This document shows, piece after piece, positions 26,065 through 37,457 of a stretch of DNA of 64,000 nucleotides. The notes under the pieces were generated by a model that was not told the origin of the DNA, did not search any database, and saw only the letters and a program-made list of their open reading frames with translations. Source of the stretch: Nitrospirales bacterium. Its GTDB lineage: Bacteria; Nitrospirota; Nitrospiria; Nitrospirales; UBA8639. The stretch spans positions 4,352,001 to 4,416,000 of the forward strand of contig OY820905.2 of assembly GCA_963555755.3 (NCBI GenBank). The letters are read 5' to 3'. Numbering within the stretch: position 1 is the first letter of the stretch; each line of letters begins with the position of its first letter. The position numbers were made by a program, and so were the translations under genes.

Positions 26065-26951
26065 TAAGACAGGGCCATGGAGTTTTTGATGACGACCATA
26101 TAATAATAGAATGTAGGCACAGTGAGAAGGAGGCTGTCAATGCGGTCCAAGAATCCTCCATGGCCGGGGATCAAGCTCCCTGAATCTTTGGCTCCGGCCT
26201 GGCGCTTAAACGCGGACTCCGAAAGATCTCCCACGGTGCCCAGAAGGGTCAGTGCGATTCCCAAGATCACGCAATCGGCCACGGTGAATGTCGGTAAAAA
26301 CCAGAGGCTTGCCATCCATGCGATGAGCGTGGCGCCAATCAAACCACCCACTAAGCCTTCGATGGTTTTCTTGGGGCTCAGGATGGGGGCCAAGGGTCGA
26401 GAGCCAAAACCCCTGCCGACGAAATAGGCGGCGGCATCTCCACCCCACGTGACCAGCAAGACAAAAAATATCAAAAATGGGCCGTCCGGGAGTGTTCGAA
26501 TCCTGAGGAAATGGCCGAGGGTGAGACTGATATAGAACACGCCGAACAAGAGCATGGGAATATTGCCGAACGATGGTGAGGGCGCCATCCACACTTGATA
26601 GGCAATCAGCACGGCAAGGATGGTAATACAAGTCGTGTGAAATCCGATCAAAGCCGGCCATTGCAGGGAGACCAAGATGATGCCTCCGCAGAAGAGCCCA
26701 ACGAGCGATGATTGCCGGTGGTGTTCGTCTACAAAAGTGAGACTGTAAAATTCCCACATGGCCAAACATGAAACGACTGTGATGAGGATAAAGAAAAAGA
26801 TGGGAGGTAAGTGACGCGTGAGAAGATAAAACAGAGGAACAAACACCAGCGCGGAGTACACCCGTTTGGGATCAAACGGTTTTGGCGGTTCTGAGGGAAT
26901 CAGGTCTGGAGTCTTCGAAGATGAGGGTGAGGAACCGGCATGAGGTTTCAC
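26064..26951 (-). CDS. cdsA: Phosphatidate cytidylyltransferase
   Basis: SPKKTIEG and KDSGSLIPGHGGFLDRIDS; GTG start overlaps the uppS stop (GTGA). Confidence 0.95.
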   Translation of the reverse strand: MKPHAGSSPSSSKTPDLIPSEPPKPFDPKRVYSALVFVPLFYLLTRHLPPIFFFILITVVSCLAMWEFYSLTFVDEHHRQSSLVGLFCGGIILVSLQWPALIGFHTTCITILAVLIAYQVWMAPSPSFGNIPMLLFGVFYISLTLGHFLRIRTLPDGPFLIFFVLLVTWGGDAAAYFVGRGFGSRPLAPILSPKKTIEGLVGGLIGATLIAWMASLWFLPTFTVADCVILGIALTLLGTVGDLSESAFKRQAGAKDSGSLIPGHGGFLDRIDSLLLTVPTFYYYMVVIKNSMALS

Positions 26952-27745
26952 GAGCCACGTTGCGAGGAAGCGGTCTGAGACACACGTCCAAACCGACGAT
27001 CTCGTTTTTGGTAATCCAGTAGGGCCAAGAGTACCTCTCGACGCCGAAAGTCTGGCCACTGGACTTTGGTGAAGTGCAATTCCGTATAGGCAAGTTGCCA
27101 AAGAAGAAAATTGCTGATCCGGGCCTCGCCACTGGTGCGAATCAGCAAATCCGGGTCGGGCAAGTCAGCCGTCGTTAGATACTGTTCAAATTGGCCTTCC
27201 GTGATAGGGATAGAGACCTTCCCGTTGCGAGCGTCCTCCAGCAGGTCATTGACCGCATCAATGATTTCCGATCGGCCACCGTAACTCAAGGCGACGGTTA
27301 ATATCCGGTCGGTGAAATGTGCAGTTTCTTCCGCGACATCATTGACCACGGCTTGGGTGGATATTGGTAAGGCGTTCAAGCGACCGATCGGCAAAAATCG
27401 CATTTTCCGATCTTGGAATGTTTGTCGCTCCTTTTGAAGAAATTGCTCAAGAAGGGTCATCAGTAAGGCAACTTCCGCGCGTGGCCGGTTCCAGTTTTCC
27501 TGAGAGAAGGCGTAAATGGTAAGAATGGGAATCGATAATTCGTCGAAAAAGTTAATGACCTCACGGAGGGCTGACAGCCCTTCCCGATGGCCGGCAATGC
27601 GGGGCAGGCCTCGCGAAGCGGCCCATCGTCCATTCCCGTCCATGATGATCGCGACATGGCGAGGCATGAGGTCAGGCTCAAGGCTCAACTGCAGCTCCTG
27701 CTCAGTGAGTTCCGAATGAATATCCGGTGCTGAAAATGTGTCCAT
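26948..27745 (-). CDS. uppS: Undecaprenyl diphosphate synthase
   Basis: HVAIIMDGNGRWA, YAFSQENW and IRTSGEARISNFLLWQ motifs. Confidence 0.97.
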   Translation of the reverse strand: MDTFSAPDIHSELTEQELQLSLEPDLMPRHVAIIMDGNGRWAASRGLPRIAGHREGLSALREVINFFDELSIPILTIYAFSQENWNRPRAEVALLMTLLEQFLQKERQTFQDRKMRFLPIGRLNALPISTQAVVNDVAEETAHFTDRILTVALSYGGRSEIIDAVNDLLEDARNGKVSIPITEGQFEQYLTTADLPDPDLLIRTSGEARISNFLLWQLAYTELHFTKVQWPDFRRREVLLALLDYQKRDRRFGRVSQTASSQRGS

Positions 27746-27930
27746 GCTGTCCAGGAAAGACCTTACGTAGAAACGATCCCCTCGAAAGGGGGATACGACA
27801 TAAAAACTAAGTCTAATCGGCATGTTCGGTCTTGTCAATCTTCTCTAAGCAGGTCCACGCATTTTTCATTGAGTCTATGCTGTGGGGGTTAATTGAGACC
27901 GTCGTGACAAATAGCCTTTCCAGGTTCAGC

Positions 27931-28725
27931 GTTCGTGGGTTAAAGGGTTCACGGTTGAGAGTGAAAGAGGTGTTAAGATTGATTTGTTTGAACATATTGA
28001 AGTTGGCAAAAGGACGATGCGAAGTTTCTAGAGCCAAACCCTGAACCTTTCAACGTTGAACCTGAAAATGCTGACAATTGCGTCACTGTGTTCGTGGGTT
28101 AAAGGGTTCACGGTTGAGAGTGAAAGAGGTGTTAAGATTGATTTGTTTGAACATATTGAAGTTGGCAAAAGGACGATGCGAAGTTTCTAGAGCCAAACCC
28201 TGAACCTTTCAACGTTGAACCTGAAAATGCTGACAATTGCGTCACTGTGTTCGTGGGTTAAAGGGTTCACGGTTGAGAGTGAAAGAGGTGTTAAGATTGA
28301 TTTGTTTGAACATATTGAAGTTGGCAAAAGGACGATGCGAAGTTTCTAGAGCCAAACCCTGAACCTTTCAACGTTGAACCTGAAAATGCTGACAATTGCG
28401 TCACTGTGTTCGTGGGTTAAAGGGTTCACGGTTGAGAGTGAAAGAGGTGTTAAGATTGATTTGTTTGAACATATTGAAGTTGGCAAAAGGACGATGCGAA
28501 GTTTCTAGAGCCAAACCCTGAACCTTTCAACGTTGAACCTGAAAATGCTGACAATTGCGTCACTGTGTTCGTGGGTTAAAGGGTTCACGGTTGAGAGTGA
28601 AAGAGGTGTTAAGATTGATTTGTTTGAACATATTGAAGTTGGCAAAAGGACGATGCGAAGTTTCTAGAGCCAAACCCTGAACCTTTCAACGTTGAACCTG
28701 AAAATGCTGACAATTGCGTCACTGT
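27931..28725. repeat. 5 x 159-bp tandem repeat
   Basis: Units start at 27931, 28090, 28249, 28408 and 28567; no differences seen. Confidence 0.97.
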
Positions 28726-28741
28726 AAGGCCTCGGTTATAC

Positions 28742-29409
28742 CTCAGTTTTTCCGTGAAGTCGAAGAATTGCTGGCCGAACGCGGCATCACCGTCACCTAT
28801 GAAACCGTTCGTCAATGGTGCCGAAAGTTTGAGTCGGTCGATGCGAGGAAATTGAAGAAGCGACAAGGTCGTCTCGGTGATACGTGGCATCTTGATGAAG
28901 TGTTTGTGTCCATCCACGGCGAACAGCAGTATCTCTGGCGAGCCATGGATCAAGACGGCGATACCATTGATATGTTGGTGCAACGCCGACGCAATACACA
29001 AGCGGCGGTCCGCTTCTTCCGCCGCTTACTGAAAGGCCAAGGCCGTGAGCCGCGCTGGATGATCACCGACACACTCAAAAGCTACGGGGCCGCACACCGG
29101 GCCGTCAGGCCGACCGTCGAGCATATCAATGCGGTCTACGCCAATAACCGAGTTGAAGTGTCACACCAACCCACGCGGCAACAAGAATATCATATGCGAG
29201 GGTTTTCTTCAGCAACTCACGCTCAACGGTTTTTGACGTTACACGGACTCACACAGAATCTCTTTCGTCTCGGCCGCCACCTCATGCAGACGGTCCATTA
29301 TCGACTGTTGCGCACCCAGGCCTTTCAGGTCTGGGAGGCAGCGGTGTGCGCATAAGCAGCTTGGGGTAGCTGGTTCAATGTGCCCATCGATCGTGAAGTT
29401 GACAATACC
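28742..29409 (+). mobile_element. 5'-truncated IS6-family element
   Basis: WHLDEVFV, YLWRAMDQDG and NNRVEVSHQPTR motifs; right IR GTTGACAATACC. Confidence 0.9.
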
Positions 29410-29570
29410 CCAGGGCGTTATGGGCAAATACCATCAAGGCCATTGCGGGCCGCGTGCAGAGTTTTGGGCCGTTAAATGGTTGGCGGAATTCTGATTCGTG
29501 CTTGTTCAGTTTCCTGAGACTCTGGTTCGGGCGGCCACAGACATTGTTGTATTCGCTGCGGAATGACGCC

Positions 29571-30095
29571 TTATTGATTAATGGTGTATTTGACATTCCA
29601 GTACTTGTCACTACTGTTCCACGATTTTTGGCAGGCGATCGTACAGGTCGCACACAGATTAACCAGGCTGGCTGTTTTGCAATCGTACGGCGTAAAAAAT
29701 GTAGCTTCGCCGCCTCTAAGCTGGAAATTGCCAATTTGGAACGAGCAAACGGCCGCAGCCGTGGTTGCACCAGTGTCCATTTCTAGCTTAACCAGGACAT
29801 CTTTTGAAGAACTAGTTATGGCCGTGGAGATACCGAAGTTTTGATGATCTTTATCGCCTGGTGAGAGTTCCAGGGTGTTTTTCAAATTGCCGTCTCTGAG
29901 GTACCTGACTGAAAACGTCATGTCGGTATTGTTTTTTATTCTGACCTTCGCTTTTTTAGCTTTTAAACCGGGGCCCGATTTCTCCGTGTAAACACAGTTT
30001 CCTGCCATTGCTGTCGATGCTAAGGCAATTCCGCATAGCATGCTGAACATCAGGATTGAACAGATCATTTTCCCGGTTTGGTTGTTAAGTCCCAT
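29571..30095 (-). CDS. Secreted hypothetical protein with several Cys
   Basis: AAGGAGG RBS, signal peptide ending AMA-G. Confidence 0.7.
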   Translation of the reverse strand: MGLNNQTGKMICSILMFSMLCGIALASTAMAGNCVYTEKSGPGLKAKKAKVRIKNNTDMTFSVRYLRDGNLKNTLELSPGDKDHQNFGISTAITSSSKDVLVKLEMDTGATTAAAVCSFQIGNFQLRGGEATFFTPYDCKTASLVNLCATCTIACQKSWNSSDKYWNVKYTINQ

Positions 30096-30233
30096 AGCAG
30101 AAACCTCCTTGTTGGCCAATCGGTGTATATTAGGAAGGATTTAGGTAATATACCCAGAAATCCATCGCTATTGAGTAGCTCGTTCTCGAAACCATTTACC
30201 TTGCTCGTTGCGTCACCCTCTAAATTTTGCGAC

Positions 30234-30735
30234 CCGATGATGCATGTGTCTTTGTTCTAGTCCTTCTTGCTCAAAGTGATTGTGAGCTTTTCCACCGTCA
30301 TGGTGGGCATGAACTGTTCCATCAATATAGCAAGGTGTGTTGTCAATCAAATCCTTCATGAATACATCATCTATGTTTAGGATCATGGTGGATGCTTCAA
30401 CTGCAGTTTTGAAAACCTGTTGTTTTGCAGCCACTGTTTCTATGATTTCAGATGATGACACGCCAGATATTTTCCTCAGGTTGGAATTAATCTCACCCCA
30501 TTTCACATTTCCATTATACTAGATACTAGACTTTGAAATTTTGTCCATAATAGTATTAAAGTAACTAATACATTCATCCCTAAATTACGTGCTAATGTCA
30601 ATGGTATTTCCTCTCCAGCATCAGCAAATCTCTCTACTGCGATTTGCTCCTTACTTTCAACAGTTCCAGCTCGCTGACTAATTTTTAGTACTACAATCCC
30701 CTCAGCAGAACCAGCACCATGTACAAGGAACAGAT
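30234..30735 (-). pseudogene. Group II chaperonin (thermosome/TCP-1) C-terminal fragment, frameshifted
   Basis: EQIAVERFADA.EEIPLTLARNLGM; IIETVAAKQQVFKTAVEASTMILNIDDV; His-rich tail. Confidence 0.75.
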
Positions 30736-31076
30736 TTTCCTCATGGTACAACGCTTCCAAGTGAATGTGGAAGTCAGAGACTTCAACGCCGGTAGGGAAG
30801 AAGTCTGTCTTAGTGATATTGGCCTTAGCGAAAGCCACTTGTGCCGATGTGCCCGTGTGCTGCGATGTTGATTCCTCGGGTTATCGCAGATACGAAGCCG
30901 TGGCTATACCGTAAGGTGGGGTGGGACCAAGGTCTGACCTGATGACACAGCCATAGCCAGGCAGGGCCTTTAAAAAAACCCGCCAGTTTCTCAAATTTTA
31001 TCAATCTAAAACGTGAGATGGGAGGAAGAATATGAAAATACAAACAATCATATGGCTTGGGTCTGGGGTCAGGTCT

Positions 31077-32545
31077 CAATACTGTTCACTTAGATGAAAA
31101 TCTGTTATGCTTCGCCTCCACACGTAATCTGGGAGGAGGCAACATGGCAAGAAAGAAAGTCGGCTTGGGGGCGGGGGCTCGATTGGCGGATTATTTGAGC
31201 ACGGGATTACTGGCTCGTGCCTTTCCGGTGGCCATCATCAACGAAGAACTTGACGCACATCATTGTAACAGTGAACGTGTCCGCACCTTTCCCGCTTCTG
31301 CCGTGGTGTACTACACCATGGCGTTGAGCTTATACAGCGAGGCCGCGTACGAAGCGGTGTTTGCCGCTGTGGCCCAAGGGCTGGCCTGGCAAGACCAGCA
31401 ACCTGTGGCTCCCGTGAGCGTTGTCAAATCCGCCATCAGCAAAGCCCGCTCACGGCTGACGTGGCAGGCGCTGAAAGCCATTGGGCAGCGCTGCTTGCGC
31501 CCGTTGGCTCGTCCAGAGCATGCCCACGCCTTTTTTGCAGGCTACCGACTCGTCGCGATAGATGGCTCCAACTTTGAGGTCCCGGATGAGGAAGCCACTG
31601 TGCAAGCCTTTGGGTACCCAGGGAGCCGAACCGGGCAGGCCGGCTACCCCCAAGCCCAGTGCGCCATTTTGACGGAATGTGCCAGTCACGCCATTTTGGA
31701 TGCCGAACTAGGGGCCTATAAGCAGGCCGAATGGGAGGTGGCCGCGCCCTTGGTGCGTCGCCTCACGCCCGACATGCTCTGCATGGCCGATCGCGGCTTT
31801 GTCGGGTACGCCCATTGGCAGGCCGGCCTTCAGACCGGAGCGCAACTGCTCTGGCGCATGCCGAAGCACTTGCTCCTTCCGGTTGACAAGCTGTTGGACG
31901 ATGGCTCGTACCTGAGCCGTCTGTACCCCAGTGAACGCGCCAGAAGAAAGCGAATCGATGGGATCGCCCTCAGGGTGATTGAGTATGTCTTACCGCAGGG
32001 GCCCAATAGCGAACCGCTGTACCGTCTCGTCACCACGCTGCTGGATGACCAAGGCGCACCCGCCCAGGACCTGGCTCAACTGTATCACGAGCGCTGGGAG
32101 GTGGAATTGGTGTTTGATGAGCTGAAGACGCACCTGGGGCAACGTCGTCGCGTCCTGCGCAGTAAAACGCCAGAGTTGGTGCGTCAAGAGTTCTACGGAT
32201 GGGTGATGGCCCACTACGCCGTGCGCTGGTTGATGTATCAAGGGGCCACCCAGGCAGACATCCCGGACCGCACAGTATCTTTTACGGCCACGGTGCAGTT
32301 AGTGCGTCGAACCCTGCCCCAATCTGGGGCCCTTCCCCCCTGAGCGCCAAAAAACATGGTATCGGCTGCTGTTTGAGGCGACGGCAAAACTGTTGTGTGA
32401 ATCCAGCCGGGGAAAAATCAAGCCGAGGATGGTGAAACGCCGAAACTCTCCATACGCACCGTACAAACGCCCGAGACCGCCCGTTGCGCAAATGGACTGG
32501 ACACCATCCATCAAACCACCGAAGATATCTAAGTGAACAGTATTG
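31077..32545 (+). mobile_element. IS4-family element A (1469 bp), transposase 31144-32343
   Basis: IR CAATACTGTTCACTTAGAT; TSD GGTCAGGTCT; AIDGS, ADRGF and YHERWEVELVFDELK motifs. Confidence 0.95.
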
Positions 32546-32588
32546 GGTCAGGTCTAACATTAATACATGCCCTGTTGTACTCAAGCCA

Positions 32589-32945
32589 TGGCCAGACCGT
32601 TACGACTGGAATTTGCGGGTGCGGTGTATCATGTCACCGCAAGAGGAGATAGGCGCGAGGTCATCTCTCGGGCTGCTGACAATAGAGAACACGGGCTGGA
32701 AGTCTTTGCCAGCGTCTGTGAAAGTTTCAACTGGGTCATGCAGGTGTAGGAATGTGAGACCCGACCCAATACTCCGGACCCTTGTCATTGGATGAATATC
32801 ACCGACGCTCTCAGAGGAGATAATGAAGCGATGGCCAGGCTTATCTATCAGGGGCTTACACGATGGCGGAGATCGGCGGTCATTTTGGTCTACACTACTA
32901 TATGACGGTGAGTCGAGCCGTGCAACAATTTGAAGGAACACAGCA
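32589..32945 (+). pseudogene. REP-associated tyrosine transposase (RAYT, Y1 HUH), internally deleted
   Basis: MARPLRLEFAGAVYHVTARGDRRE N-terminus; AYLSGAYTMAEIGGHFGLHY..VSRAV C-terminus; flanking REP inverted repeats. Confidence 0.85.
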
Positions 32946-33131
32946 TCCCATGTAGGAATGTTAGAACTGACCCCCAACCTGCTATGGTCGGTTCTGACCA
33001 TGGTAATTTGCTTGTCGCTACCCTTTAGTATAGATGTAGGTTATTGTAGAAGTTCATTGAGTTTTCTCCTTTTTTGGTTTAGCCGCCTTCCAGTATAGCT
33101 GATATGGCTAAGCTGGGGGAGAAGGCTCAAT

Positions 33132-33200
33132 GAGTATCAAAGCAATGAACAGGGATTTTTCAAGCTACGCTTTCAAAATCCGTTATTGCGGTCGTTATGT
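33132..33200 (+). other. attC-like recombination site (degenerate R'')
   Basis: Imperfect palindrome GCAATGAACAGGGATTTT / AAAATCCGTTATTGC with extrahelical bases, ending in GTTATGT. Confidence 0.65.
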
Positions 33201-33225
33201 GTACACTAGGCTTAAAATGAAAGTA

Positions 33226-34237
33226 TATGCCTTCCCATTTGACTAAGGTTAGTCCCTAGACTAGTCTGCTGGACTATGGACACAGGGTATGCTGCTGATA
33301 TCTTGGATTTTTCTGTTAGGTTCCACACCGAAGAAGCGTGCTTCGAGTACTTGCGGGCGATTCGGTGGCCAGACGGGTTTATGTGTCCAGCTTGCGGTCA
33401 TCGCGGTGGTTGGTGGCTCAAAAAATATTTCCGGTTTGAGTGTTCGTCGTGTCATAGACAGACATCACCGCTAAGCGGCACAGTGATGCATAGATCGCAC
33501 TTGCCGCTACGGCTTTGGTTTTGGGCTGCCTATTTCGTCTCCACGCACACACCTGGCATCAGTGCTGTGCAATTGCAGCGTCAACTCAGTATCAAGAAGG
33601 TGGATAGCGCCTGGTATTTGCTCCACAGATTGCGACGAGGAATGGTACGACAGAACCGTGAACGGCTCGCAGGAACAGTTGAAGCCGATGAAACCCATAT
33701 CGGTGGACCGGTAAAAGGCAAAACGGGCCGTGGCGTCGCGAAAGCGAAAACCAAGACGTTAATAGCCGGAGCCGTAGAAATTGTCACGTACACACAAGGG
33801 GATCACTTTCGAGAGAAAGCAGGGCGTTTACGATTAGCGATTCTTCAAGACGCTGGAGAGAACGAGATCAAAGCATTCCTCAATAGCCATGTCGCTGAGG
33901 GCAGTAAGATCAAGTCCGATGGTTGGAAGGGATACTCGGCAAAAGCCTTGGCAGGATACGAACACCTGAGACGGACCCAGGGTGACCCAGCAAGTGCTGG
34001 GAAGCACGCTCCACACATCCATAGAGCGTTCGGCAATCTGCAGACCTGGCTGAACGGGATTCACCATGGAGTGGATTCAAAATACCTGCAACACTATCTT
34101 GATGAGTTTGTCTTTCGCTATAACCGCCGTGAGACTCCAATGAGTACCTTCCAGAGTTTGTTGAAAATCCTGACCAGCAGCTCAAAACCCTTGGGATTCA
34201 ATAAACTGAAGCAACCTTAGTTAAATGGGAAGGCATA
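33226..34237 (+). mobile_element. IS1595-family element (1012 bp), transposase 33276-34220
   Basis: IR TATGCCTTCCCATTT.ACTAAGG; 8-bp TSD TGAAAGTA; zinc ribbon, VEADETHIGG, SDGWKGY and YLDEFVFRYNRR motifs. Confidence 0.93.
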
Positions 34238-34491
34238 TGAAAGTATATATATTTGCAGCTTTATTTGGATTATTTGTAACTTTTTTGGGTCTTTTTGCAG
34301 GGCTACAACTATCTCCAATTCTGGGGAATATATTAGCCTTCCCGTTTGTCATATCCGCGATTATTACTGGTACTGGCGTTTTCACTTATTCTAGAAGTGT
34401 ATTTCTTGGTCTATTTTTATTTACTAGTTTGTTTTGGGCCGCAATATTTATTCTAATAATAAAACTCAAAACTATATTTTTTCACAATTAA
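34237..34491 (+). CDS. Small membrane protein, probable integron gene cassette ORF
   Basis: 84 aa, hydrophobic, AT-rich; bounded by GTTATGT (33194) and ACATAAC (34502). Confidence 0.65.
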   Translation: MKVYIFAALFGLFVTFLGLFAGLQLSPILGNILAFPFVISAIITGTGVFTYSRSVFLGLFLFTSLFWAAIFILIIKLKTIFFHN

Positions 34492-34541
34492 CAATGTTTA
34501 AACATAACAAGAATCCGGGGTTAGGGTCTGGGGTCAGGTCT

Positions 34542-36010
34542 CAATACTGTTCACTTAGATATCTTCGGTGGTTTGATGGATGGTGTCCAGTCAATTTGCG
34601 CAACGGGCGGTCTCGGACGTTTGTACGGTGCGTATGGAGAGTTTCGGCGTTTCACCATCCTCGGCTTGATTTTTCCACGACTGGATTCACACAACAGTTT
34701 CGCCGTCGCCTCAAACAGCAGCCGATACCATGTTTTTTGGCGCTCAGGGGGGAAGGGCCCCAGATTGGGGCAGGGTTCGACGCACTAACTGCACCGTGGC
34801 CGTAAAAGATACCGTGCGGTCAGGGATGTCTGCCTGGGTGGCCCCTTGATACATCAACCAGCGCACGGCGTAGTGGGCCATCACCCATCCGTAGAACTCT
34901 TGACGCACCAACTCTGGCGTTTTACTGCGCAGGACGCGACGACGTTGCCTCAGGTGCGTCTTCAGCTCATCAAACACCAATTCCACCTCCCAGCGCTCGT
35001 GATACAGTTGAGCCAGGTCCTGGGCGGGTGCGCCTTGGTCATCCAGCAGCGTGGTGACGAGACGGTACAGCGGTTCGCTATTGGGCCCCTGCGGTAAGAC
35101 ATACTCAATCACCCTGATGGCGATCCCATCAATTCGCTTTCTTCTGGCGCGTTCACTGGGATACAGATGGCTCAGGTACGAGCCATCGTCCAACAGCTTG
35201 TCAACTGGAAGGATCAAGCTCTTCGGCATGCGCCAGAGTAGTTGCGCTCCGGTCTGAAGGCCGGCCTGCCAATGGGCGTACCCGACAAAGCCGCGATCGG
35301 CCATGCAGAGCATGTCGGGCGTGAGGCGACGCACCAAGGGCGCGGCCACCTCCCATTCGGCCTGCTTATAGGCCCCTAGTTCGGCATCCAAAATGGCGTG
35401 ACTGGCACATTCCGTCAAAATGGCGCACTGGGCTTGGGGGTAGCCGGCCTGCCCGGTTCGGCTCCCTGGGTACCCAAAGGCTTGCACATTGGCTTCCTCA
35501 TCCGGGACCTCAAAGTTGGAGCCATCTATCGCGACGAGTCGGTAGCCTGCAAAAAAGGCGTGGGCATGCTCTGGACGAGCCAACGGGCGCAAGCAGCGCT
35601 GTCCAATGGCTTTCAGCGCCTTCCACGTCAGCCGTGAGCGGGCTTTGCTGATGGCTGATTTGACAACGGTCACGGGAGCAACGGGTTTGTGGTCTTTCCA
35701 TGCCAGCCCTTGGGCCACAGCGGCAAACACCGCTTCGTACGCGGCCTCGCTGTATAAGCTCAACGCCATGGTGTAGTACACCACGGCAGAAGCGGGAAAG
35801 GTGCGGACACGTTCACTGTTACAATGATGTGCGTCAAGTTCTTCGTTGATGATGGCCACCGGAAAGGCACGAGCCAGTAATCCCGTGCTCAAATAATCCG
35901 CCAATCGAGCCCCCGCCCCCAAGCCGACTTTCTTTCTTGCCATGTTGCCTCCTCCCAGATTACGTGTGGAGGCGAAGTATAACAGATTTTCATCTAAGTG
36001 AACAGTATTG
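34542..36010 (-). mobile_element. IS4-family element B (1469 bp), transposase 34744-35943
   Basis: Close homologue of A in the opposite orientation; same TSD GGTCAGGTCT. Confidence 0.95.
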
Positions 36011-36177
36011 GGTCAGGTCTCACATTCCTACATGCCCTGTTGTACTCAAGCCATGGCCAGCAAATTCCAGCCGTAACAGCAAATTCCAGCCGTAAAGGTT
36101 TTGCCAAGCAAAGCATGTAGGAATGTGAGAACTGACCCCTCCACAGAACTGACCCCACCACCCACCATGACCAGCAC

Positions 36178-37110
36178 CTAAAATATTGATAATTTCGTTC
36201 TGGTCGTTAAAAATTCAAGAATTTTCATGCCTTTATACGAGTTGCCTTTGGCATTTAATTTTGGGCTCCAAACCGCAATACTAAAGTGCCCGGGGTAAAT
36301 AGCGATAATCCCACCGCCGACTCCACTTTTTCCCGGCAATCCCACCTTAAAGGAAAACTCTCCGGCTTCGTCATAAAACCCGCAGAGTTGCATAATGGCA
36401 TTGATCCGCTTGGATTTACTCACATTCACCACGCGTTCATGGGTGAGTGGATGAACCCCCTTGGCGGCAAGAAACAAAAACCCTTGAGCTAATTCCTTAC
36501 ATGTCATTTCAATGGAGCAGAGATGGAAATATAAGTCTAAAACGATCTCGATATCATTGTGAATATTGCCAAAGGTCTTCATTAAATTAATGAGGGCCGC
36601 GTTGGTATAGCCCGTTAATTTTTCTGATTCAGCAACCCGGGGGCAGTAATCTATCGTGGGATTCCCGGATACCTTTCTCGTGAATTCAAGAAATTCTTGT
36701 TTAGGGTGTTGCAGGCGGCTTACCAGAATATCGCAAAGGACCAAGGCGCCCGCATTGATGAACGGGTTACGAGGAATTCCCTTTTCATATTCTAATTGAA
36801 CCAATGAATTAAACGGGGTGCCGGAGGGTTCCACCCCGACTCTCTCCCACAAAAAATCATCTTCCAATTCAAAGGCTAAGACCAAGGATAATACTTTGGA
36901 AATACTTTGAATCGAAAATTTATCATTGGAATCGCCCAAGCTATAATTCTGATTATCGATGGTGGTCAGATGAATGCCAAATTTCTTGGGATCCACATTT
37001 CGTAATTCAGGGATATAGGAAGCCAGATGGCCGATGTCTTTCAAGTGTCGTAATTCGATCGCCATGTCCGAAAATAGTTTTTTATAATCCAGACCCTGAT
37101 CGGATTTCAT
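36178..37110 (-). CDS. glsA: Glutaminase
   Basis: FSIQSISK, GVEPSGTPFNS, NPFINAGA and GLPGKSGVGGG motifs. Confidence 0.95.
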   Translation of the reverse strand: MKSDQGLDYKKLFSDMAIELRHLKDIGHLASYIPELRNVDPKKFGIHLTTIDNQNYSLGDSNDKFSIQSISKVLSLVLAFELEDDFLWERVGVEPSGTPFNSLVQLEYEKGIPRNPFINAGALVLCDILVSRLQHPKQEFLEFTRKVSGNPTIDYCPRVAESEKLTGYTNAALINLMKTFGNIHNDIEIVLDLYFHLCSIEMTCKELAQGFLFLAAKGVHPLTHERVVNVSKSKRINAIMQLCGFYDEAGEFSFKVGLPGKSGVGGGIIAIYPGHFSIAVWSPKLNAKGNSYKGMKILEFLTTRTKLSIF

Positions 37111-37373
37111 GTCAAATACTCACGAGGGTAAGGGATGACCACTTGCCAGCTTTAAGATTGCAGCTGTAAGTCTAGACTCCGTGTTCCCGTGTCGCAAGAT
37201 AGATTCGCACAGCTAGTGCCTACGCCTTTTCCAGTCTTGCAGTCGGTACAATAGGTGGGATCCTGGGAAGCCCCATGGCCACGTCTGCACCTACCCTGAG
37301 TTGGAATACTTTTCCAGAGCTGGGGGTCCACTGGGAGGCAGTCTTCGCATTTCTACCAGGGGACTGTTGAAAA

Positions 37374-37402
37374 TTGCGTCACTGTAAGGCATCGGTTATA
37401 CT
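37374..37402 (+). promoter_or_regulatory. Predicted sigma70 promoter of tldD (TTGCGT-N17-TATACT)
   Basis: Canonical spacing, 55 bp upstream of the ATG; duplicated at 28714-28742. Confidence 0.6.
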
Positions 37403-37457
37403 CCTTTTCGAAATTTGGTAATCGGAAAATTCCCTTAGAATACTATTTGGAGCATTC

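Follow-up and report, generated by a model that had tools for sequence, protein, structure and literature searches.

The uppS-tldD interval and its chaperonin fragment

The window, a stretch of 64,000 nt, lies in the chromosome of a marine Nitrospirales bacterium whose genome (G000, the host genome) measures 4.62 Mb in 2 contigs and is 99.4% complete and 0.83% contaminated (CheckM-type values). The genes surrounding the feature under study are bacterial (proS, rseP, dxr, uppS, glutaminase, tldD and pmbA), and the named members of the dxr protein cluster are Nitrospirae/Nitrospirales. A search of the host genome for archaeal amoA, run without a positive control, was blank. As regards nitrite oxidation by the host, a 1158-aa frame of the DMSO-reductase family scored under the cut-off.

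The features of the locus are collected in Table 1. The stretch between uppS and tldD is an insertion hot spot: it is empty in the congeners G003 and G004, where the two genes are 320-365 bp apart, while G002 carries a different 3-kb insert, G006 has another gene there, and in G005 the contig breaks off at a repeat immediately upstream of uppS. In the host genome the interval holds IS6, two IS4, ISXO2-like sequences, Y1 remnants and the glutaminase gene. IS expansion in this genome has been heavy and recent, with 38 near-full ISXO2-like copies besides those of IS4 and IS6 given in Table 1, and many MITE-like repeats. A 159-bp unit is found in five identical tandem copies at 27931-28725, upstream of uppS, and is absent from two of the metagenome loci described below (L050 and L051). 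A ribosome-binding-like site and the start of a short frame at 31033-31059 (plus strand) are cut by the IS4 element at 31060, and no continuation of that frame was recognized beyond the IS4.

Table 1. Features of the uppS-tldD interval (window positions) and of a second, probably archaeal island (chromosome and locus positions)
Feature	Position	Strand	Remarks
uppS, bacterial anchor	26948..27838	-	joined directly to relic island in L050 and L051 (98% nt)
Variable region, uppS to tldD	27848..37444	.	9.6 kb, holds the relic
IS6/IS240-family element	28732..29409	+	8 near-full copies in G000
Orphan 174-aa Cys-containing protein	29571..30095	-	predicted to be secreted (N-terminal hydrophobic stretch)
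Spacer between relic and orphan gene	30096..30236	-	AAGGAGG ribosome-binding-like site; 94-97% identity in five other carriers
Archaeal relic	30237..30739	-	codons ~398-561 of a 563-aa His-tailed Nitrosopumilaceae thermosome paralogue
His-rich tail coding stretch	30237..30320	-	diagnostic of the thermosome paralogue
Frameshift site	30516..30540	-	1-base loss and micro-duplication; net +11 in G000
Orphan right flank	30740..31058	.	48% GC; common to run X1, partly to L053
IS4-family element	31060..32555	+	21 near-full copies in G000
Second island, probably archaeal	G000 C1:2168190-2173350 (L199:8190-13350)		3.5 kb with host IS inserted

DNA alignment to archaeal genes gave an archaeal-type chaperonin piece (hereafter, the relic) of 503 bases on the minus strand, with limits about 4 bases off those first proposed (30234..30735). 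It has no start, its 3' end falls two codons before the end of the donor gene, and it corresponds to the last 164 codons (the last 29%) of a thermosome gene, frameshifted; relative to the archaeal locus L002 there is a 12-base insertion and a 1-base deletion at about 30516-30540. At 39.0%, the GC content of 30234-30735 falls below that of the window (52.3%) and of the chromosome (50.9%). Two minus-strand frames match Pfam PF00118 (Cpn60_TCP1), at model positions 371-430 (E 6.7e-11) and 443-487 (E 2.2e-5). In NCBIfam, thermosome models are the three best matches for the upstream piece and group II models the only matches for the downstream one; neither matches a GroEL model. PDB matches named as subunits are thermosome or CCT chains. 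Chance expectation is E 2e-140 for the DNA matches and E 8.8e-45 for a 97-aa piece searched against 5.8 billion proteins. As judged by these profiles, the relic belongs to the group II chaperonin (thermosome) family. The original prediction of an AT-rich, frameshifted C-terminus of a group II chaperonin was thus borne out by model matches in two frames, and the His-rich tail that it quoted is present letter for letter.

Spanning residues ~398-561 of 563, the relic is not a full-length subunit of ~550 aa with ATP-binding equatorial domain, apical domain and built-in lid, and the nucleotide-sensing loop region presumably lies outside the fragment. The rest of the gene was not found elsewhere in the host genome, which has one full chaperonin frame, of GroEL size (555 aa), at another place. 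The relic is not a working chaperonin subunit.

Relationship to a thermosome paralogue of ammonia-oxidizing archaea

The 97-aa piece had 1145 protein matches, the best of which are 563-aa proteins with 86-89% identity. Organism names are attached to nine of the best 120 of these, and all nine are Nitrosopumilaceae; likewise, all 44 GTDB loci found with the relic sequence belong to Nitrososphaerota, so that the archaeal best matches anticipated by the original prediction were recovered. Aligned to one of the best proteins (P0002), the relic shows 84% (68 aa) and 90% (93 aa) identity and covers residues 398-561. Over 164 residues it is 85% identical at the amino acid level to P0002-P0005 and P0018, a tight clade of 563-aa proteins. 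The His-rich tail motif, taken in the original prediction as the mark of a thermosome paralogue of ammonia-oxidizing archaea (AOA), does mark such a paralogue: it occurs in 118 of 120 hits as well as in the relic itself, and none of five canonical AOA thermosome C-termini inspected has it, their tails being of the Gly/Met type or short.

A quick maximum-likelihood tree (IQ-TREE, without bootstrap; 88 rows, AOA only, with no bacterial or non-AOA rows) was built from subsampled protein hits, with duplicates and rows of <100 aligned residues dropped. It nests the relic in a clade of near-identical proteins including P0005-P0036 (SH-aLRT 97-98), within the His-tailed paralogue, and this paralogue is split from 13 canonical AOA copies at SH-aLRT 100. 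Five AOA genomes with the His-tailed paralogue hold 2-4 other full-length thermosomes each.

In the archaeal loci L002-L007 the intact paralogue lies behind an ORF with a solute-symporter-like translation, and in L003 and L005 it is followed by ORFs with urease-like translations. The relic lacks this neighborhood, and its flanks have no match among the archaeal loci. An extra thermosome has been described in Nitrosopumilaceae by Zhong et al. 2020 (PMC7265257), and the arrangement in the AOA loci, symporter-like upstream and urease-like downstream, agrees with that description. Going by this synteny, the donor family of the relic would be the very gene of MTA1 in that account; what differs here is that a bacterium carries just the last 29% of the gene, with a frameshift and without the neighboring genes. 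No donor species was found among 401 family and 151 genus genomes, where the best GTDB matches reach 81-82% nucleotide identity.

On alignment and phylogeny, the relic descends from the His-tailed AOA thermosome paralogue. It matches Nitrososphaerota, it nests within an AOA paralogue, and none of 400 other genomes of the host's phylum matches P0002 at E<1e-15; therefore the direction is from archaeon to bacterium. That some bacteria possess thermosome-like group III chaperonins (PMC12696368) might suggest instead a native Nitrospirota group II/III chaperonin gene that decayed in place. Given the same count of 0/400 for the phylum, the nesting inside an AOA-specific paralogue, the sharp junctions within coding sequence at both ends of the relic, and the ordinary GroEL-size frame of the host, a native origin is scarcely conceivable.

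Residence in the bacterial chromosome

Five sequencing runs contain all sampled words of the island; a further 17 runs with small word shares (0.12-0.19) were left out of the evidence. In three of the four runs compared (X19, X21 and X23), one contig (29335-31088/31094) spans both junctions with 0 differences, and its depth of 23.5, 47.8 and 61.9, respectively, is close to that of single-copy neighbor DNA (22, 42.7 and 60.3). X19 and X21 represent one sample, and the assembly itself may derive from either these or X23. Sediment run X1 provides a divergent contig that bridges the 5' junction (28 differences and 8 gaps in 625), and another that extends 30 bases beyond the 3' junction, a single base too few for the bridging rule.

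In all five metagenome loci found with the neighboring 174-aa ORF (L049-L053, from three assemblies), the relic is present and has its 3' junction at the same place; since these loci were found through that ORF, the retention of the 3' end of the relic is biased among them. L053 has the 5' junction identical in place too. L050 and L051 run from the relic island directly into uppS-cdsA(-dxr) with 98% identity to the host genome and lack both the IS6 element and the tandem repeat. The IS6 is therefore a later insertion, and at least the left-hand IS arrived after the capture. The IS elements beside the relic belong to different families, and together with the absence of the IS6 from L050 and L051 this means that the relic is not the cargo of a composite transposon. 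None of 40 related genomes yielded the island.

The relic thus lies in bacterial DNA, with the same junctions in several assemblies. The read support demanded for the junctions by the original prediction came from contigs of public runs that bridge them and from their recurrence in other assemblies. A chimeric assembly, or contamination from a co-occurring archaeon, might have been suspected because the community contains a related thermosome that is 12-75x deeper (in X19, X21 and X23) and because multi-copy IS elements bound the island. However, the deep thermosome contig differs from the relic at 35 of 234 bases (15%) and is therefore not its source, one contig crosses the two junctions at the depth of the host, and the low contamination estimate given above also speaks against it, as does the pseudogene damage in the relic, which would be unexpected in an archaeal read. 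Moreover, the same junction recurs in divergent sequence in L049-L053 and X1, two of these loci being continuous with uppS without any IS. Such an artifact is extremely improbable, and the recurring junctions already refute it.

Decay since capture

The relics of the host genome and L053 differ at 19 of 414 bases, distributed 6/9/4 over the three codon positions, whereas pairs of AOA genes differ mainly at third positions (8/4/38, 18/10/37, 16/11/51 and 9/2/20); the relic distribution departs from the first and second of these pairs with Fisher p 5.5e-5 and 0.008. In protein sequence the relic deviates from the donor clade at 20 of 159 residues and at 17 of the 140 columns that are invariant within that clade, and its branch in the quick tree has a length of 0.15 against 0-0.018 for clade members. 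The copies are also broken in different ways. In L049 and L050 the relic is cut at 30370 by a repeat of ~122 bp (a MITE) that is multi-copy in the host genome, and L053 has a deletion of ~63 bases. At the frameshift site, L052 and L053 show the same 1-base loss and micro-duplication but with a different length, giving a net +9 with an in-frame stop. These substitution patterns and lesions indicate that the relic has lost codon constraint and has been cut differently in different lineages, and it probably has no product or function. Third-position divergence of uppS and dxr between the host genome and L051 (25/682 codons) is of the same order as the 4.6% of the relic, consistent with one capture event that coincided with, or shortly preceded, the radiation of the species cluster of ~98% identity.

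A different fate for part of the fragment was considered, in which its AT-rich 3' part has been kept as a promoter or regulatory sequence for the downstream gene of the predicted secreted protein. The last 134 bases are indeed present in all carriers with contigs that reach them, at 97.7-100% identity compared with 94-95% for the 5' part, and the downstream ORF is intact in all six copies. But the loci were ascertained through this very ORF, the difference between the two parts is small (3/133 against 15/264), and L052 and L053 have a 1-base deletion in the 3' part. A sigma-70-like site is absent from the minus strand, and the region has one match, on the plus strand, against 3.0 expected. Such a new role is very improbable, and we retain the reading of the relic as a decaying pseudogene.

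The orphan gene and the flanking DNA

The 174-aa ORF adjoins the relic in every carrier and is hypervariable, with six conserved cysteines and 72-83% identity among clusters, compared with 98% for housekeeping genes. Its differences are distributed 26/25/17 by codon position versus 9/4/25 for uppS and dxr (Fisher p 6e-5), although the counts may be inflated near indels; this pattern suggests that the ORF is under diversifying selection. Just four clusters were found in 5.8 billion proteins, and the ORF is absent from the 400 phylum genomes searched. An ESM Atlas match (0.87) is a weak lead only. Its GC3 of 0.52 is host-like (host genes, 0.55-0.57). The right flank (30740..31058) has no match in the host genome, in 2.4 Mb of archaeal loci or in PHROGs, and an archaeal origin of the flanks or the 174-aa ORF was rejected, since searches of 2.43 Mb of archaeal loci with blastn and tblastx gave no match.

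Because both the flanks and the 174-aa ORF are orphans, the main rival to direct capture is a transfer in two steps, in which the archaeal piece, along with the orphan gene and flanks, was first acquired by another bacterium or by a mobile element, and the whole 1.65-kb island was then inserted between uppS and tldD. The flanks have no match in the host genome or in 40 relatives, the ORF is confined to the four clusters mentioned and absent from the phylum genomes, relic and ORF occur together in 5/5 loci, and the interval is a hot spot with a different 3-kb insert in G002. Against this, the island has no match in 72,556 plasmids or 50,697 phages, so that carriage by such elements was rejected, and it has no integrase, att-like repeat or terminal repeat. 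The host-like GC3 of the ORF also counts against an intermediate. A viral vector was rejected too: thermosomes of viruses do exist and have been placed near Euryarchaeota (PMC5649160), but in IMG/VR neither P0002 nor the 174-aa ORF nor the C-terminal domain of the second island (see below) has a relative. Overall, a two-step course is unlikely, though the least so of the alternatives considered here; if it did take place, the archaeal origin would stand and only the first recipient would differ.

Route of entry

The observation itself, a real archaeal chaperonin relic, is confirmed. We are fairly confident of a direct explanation, namely that a piece of a Nitrosopumilaceae thermosome gene lies in a Nitrospirales chromosome as a decaying pseudogene and likely entered once, recently, as free DNA via illegitimate recombination. 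Free archaeal DNA would have been taken up by competence from abundant AOA sharing the habitat, then joined in by illegitimate recombination and perhaps trimmed later. By comparison with the AOA relatives, both ends of the relic are sharp junctions inside coding sequence, and a search for terminal or target-site repeats at these junctions gave only chance-type pairs. Intact comEC and dprA frames are present in the host genome, with matches also in 10 and 11, respectively, of 14 control genomes; these are common genes that are merely permissive and no proof of competence. A base-level empty site was not found, because the flanks match nothing elsewhere.

The cross-domain capture put forward in the original prediction is therefore supported. 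Its further proposal, that the donor was an ecological partner of nitrite oxidizers, may hold and draws on the co-occurrence of AOA with the host.

A second island

When the host genome was scanned against the whole 1.885-Mb genome of a member of the genus Nitrosopumilus (G782), the relic was the top blastn match of 32 (408 bits) and the top protein match (78%), the next protein matches (58-67%) being in ordinary host-like frames. Two short non-coding matches pointed to another region, the second island of Table 1. A 5th-order Markov model ranks its two halves first and second in the chromosome for likeness to AOA, with the relic 10th of 45. The single gene of the island, about 1,040 codons long, combines three cupredoxin repeats with a PQQ-type propeller, a MopE-type motif and, at the C-terminus, a domain of AOA type. 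Its GC3 is 0.17-0.18, compared with 0.55-0.57 for host genes, and it has no close full-length homologue (the best is 44% over half). A profile of the C-terminal domain found matches in 11 of 91 Nitrosopumilaceae genomes and in 0 of 100 other genomes of the host phylum. The 230-bp tail of the island matches intergenic DNA in 25 of 151 genomes of the genus, with up to 38/38 and 46/48 bases identical, and was found in none of 60 host relatives, one of which matched the MopE motif only.

An IS1380-family element, which has terminal repeats and a clean 5-bp target duplication, interrupts the gene. The host genome contains six further full copies of this element (99.5-99.9%), and 2.43 Mb of archaeal loci contain none. 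The island is bracketed by a pair of Y1 transposase elements that are 99.5% identical. Tandem frames at C1:2.162-2.166 Mb are, judging by their translation, reverse transcriptases of the group II intron type. Rfam gave no match on the island, and a 27-base motif from it has no exact match in IMG/VR. An ESM Atlas match of the C-terminal domain (0.90, viral clusters) is a weak lead only. Codon composition and these matches make the second island probably archaeal and resident; with repeats on both sides, it may possibly be mis-joined.

Two sequence families came to light in passing. The C-terminal domain (L199:12721-13113) is ~130 aa long with an LPC motif and, in this copy, no Pfam match, and its 72 relatives are either stand-alone proteins or the C-termini of varied surface proteins. 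The tail (L199:13117-13345; also L201-L209) is a conserved Nitrosopumilus intergenic repeat of several 36-70-bp motifs, found in the 25 of 151 genomes and apparently undescribed, and is possibly a MITE remnant or regulatory element.

Other candidate islands were rejected: of the 20 AT-rich regions that come next in likeness to AOA (45 exceeded the threshold), 18 lacked an archaeal match and the matches of the other 2 were weak or ordinary. At C1:2659000-2662000 (L216) there is an AT-rich block of short (~135-aa), related orphan frames beside an outer-membrane-type gene, also without an archaeal match.

Comparison with known systems and significance

Transfer from archaea to bacteria is mostly inferred from old, fully adapted genes. 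The group III (thermosome-like) chaperonins of Firmicutes are a proposed case, dated to about 3 Ga (PMC12696368), and resemble the relic as archaeal-type chaperonin DNA in a bacterium. They are intact and functional, while the relic is broken, of species level and 85% identical to living AOA proteins. Nor is it an intact gene native to a bacterial lineage, as group III would be; it is a fragment only, with 0/400 in the phylum. Exchange between the same two guilds, AOA and nitrite oxidizers, has been described for cynS and focA/nirC, shared by Nitrososphaera gargensis and Nitrospira (PMC10753782). These transfers are ancient and functional, and went into the archaeon or came from a third donor, whereas the relic is recent, archaea-to-bacterium, junction-resolved and non-functional. 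In mechanism, the nearest likeness is SPDIR (10.1101/2023.11.22.568220), in which fully heterologous DNA is integrated without homology or transposase, and which is boosted by natural transformation; the patches given there measure 3 to about 100 bp, a range that the relic exceeds at 503 bp.

Inter-domain transfer and the donor paralogue are thus already known, and no earlier report of the relic transfer was found in the open-access literature on transfer between domains or between AOA and Nitrospira. The novelty lies in an archaeal fragment that is recent, neutral and resolved at its junctions and that segregates within a bacterial species cluster, probably accompanied by a second, larger capture. 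The relic represents a raw stage of transfer: neutral archaeal DNA with base-resolved junctions, a living donor clade and several differently decayed alleles. Neutral scraps of this kind could gauge how frequently DNA passes from one domain to another when selection does not filter the outcome. On balance, we lean toward a Nitrospirales lineage that repeatedly integrates DNA of co-living AOA, with a whole surface-protein gene of Nitrosopumilus type and its intergenic tail as the second, more recent capture, since knocked out by a host IS1380 copy; nitrifier consortia would in that case be a standing, measurable channel of DNA from archaea to bacteria. With the second island, the long-standing question whether DNA exchange between AOA and nitrite-oxidizing bacteria proceeds at a measurable rate becomes testable.
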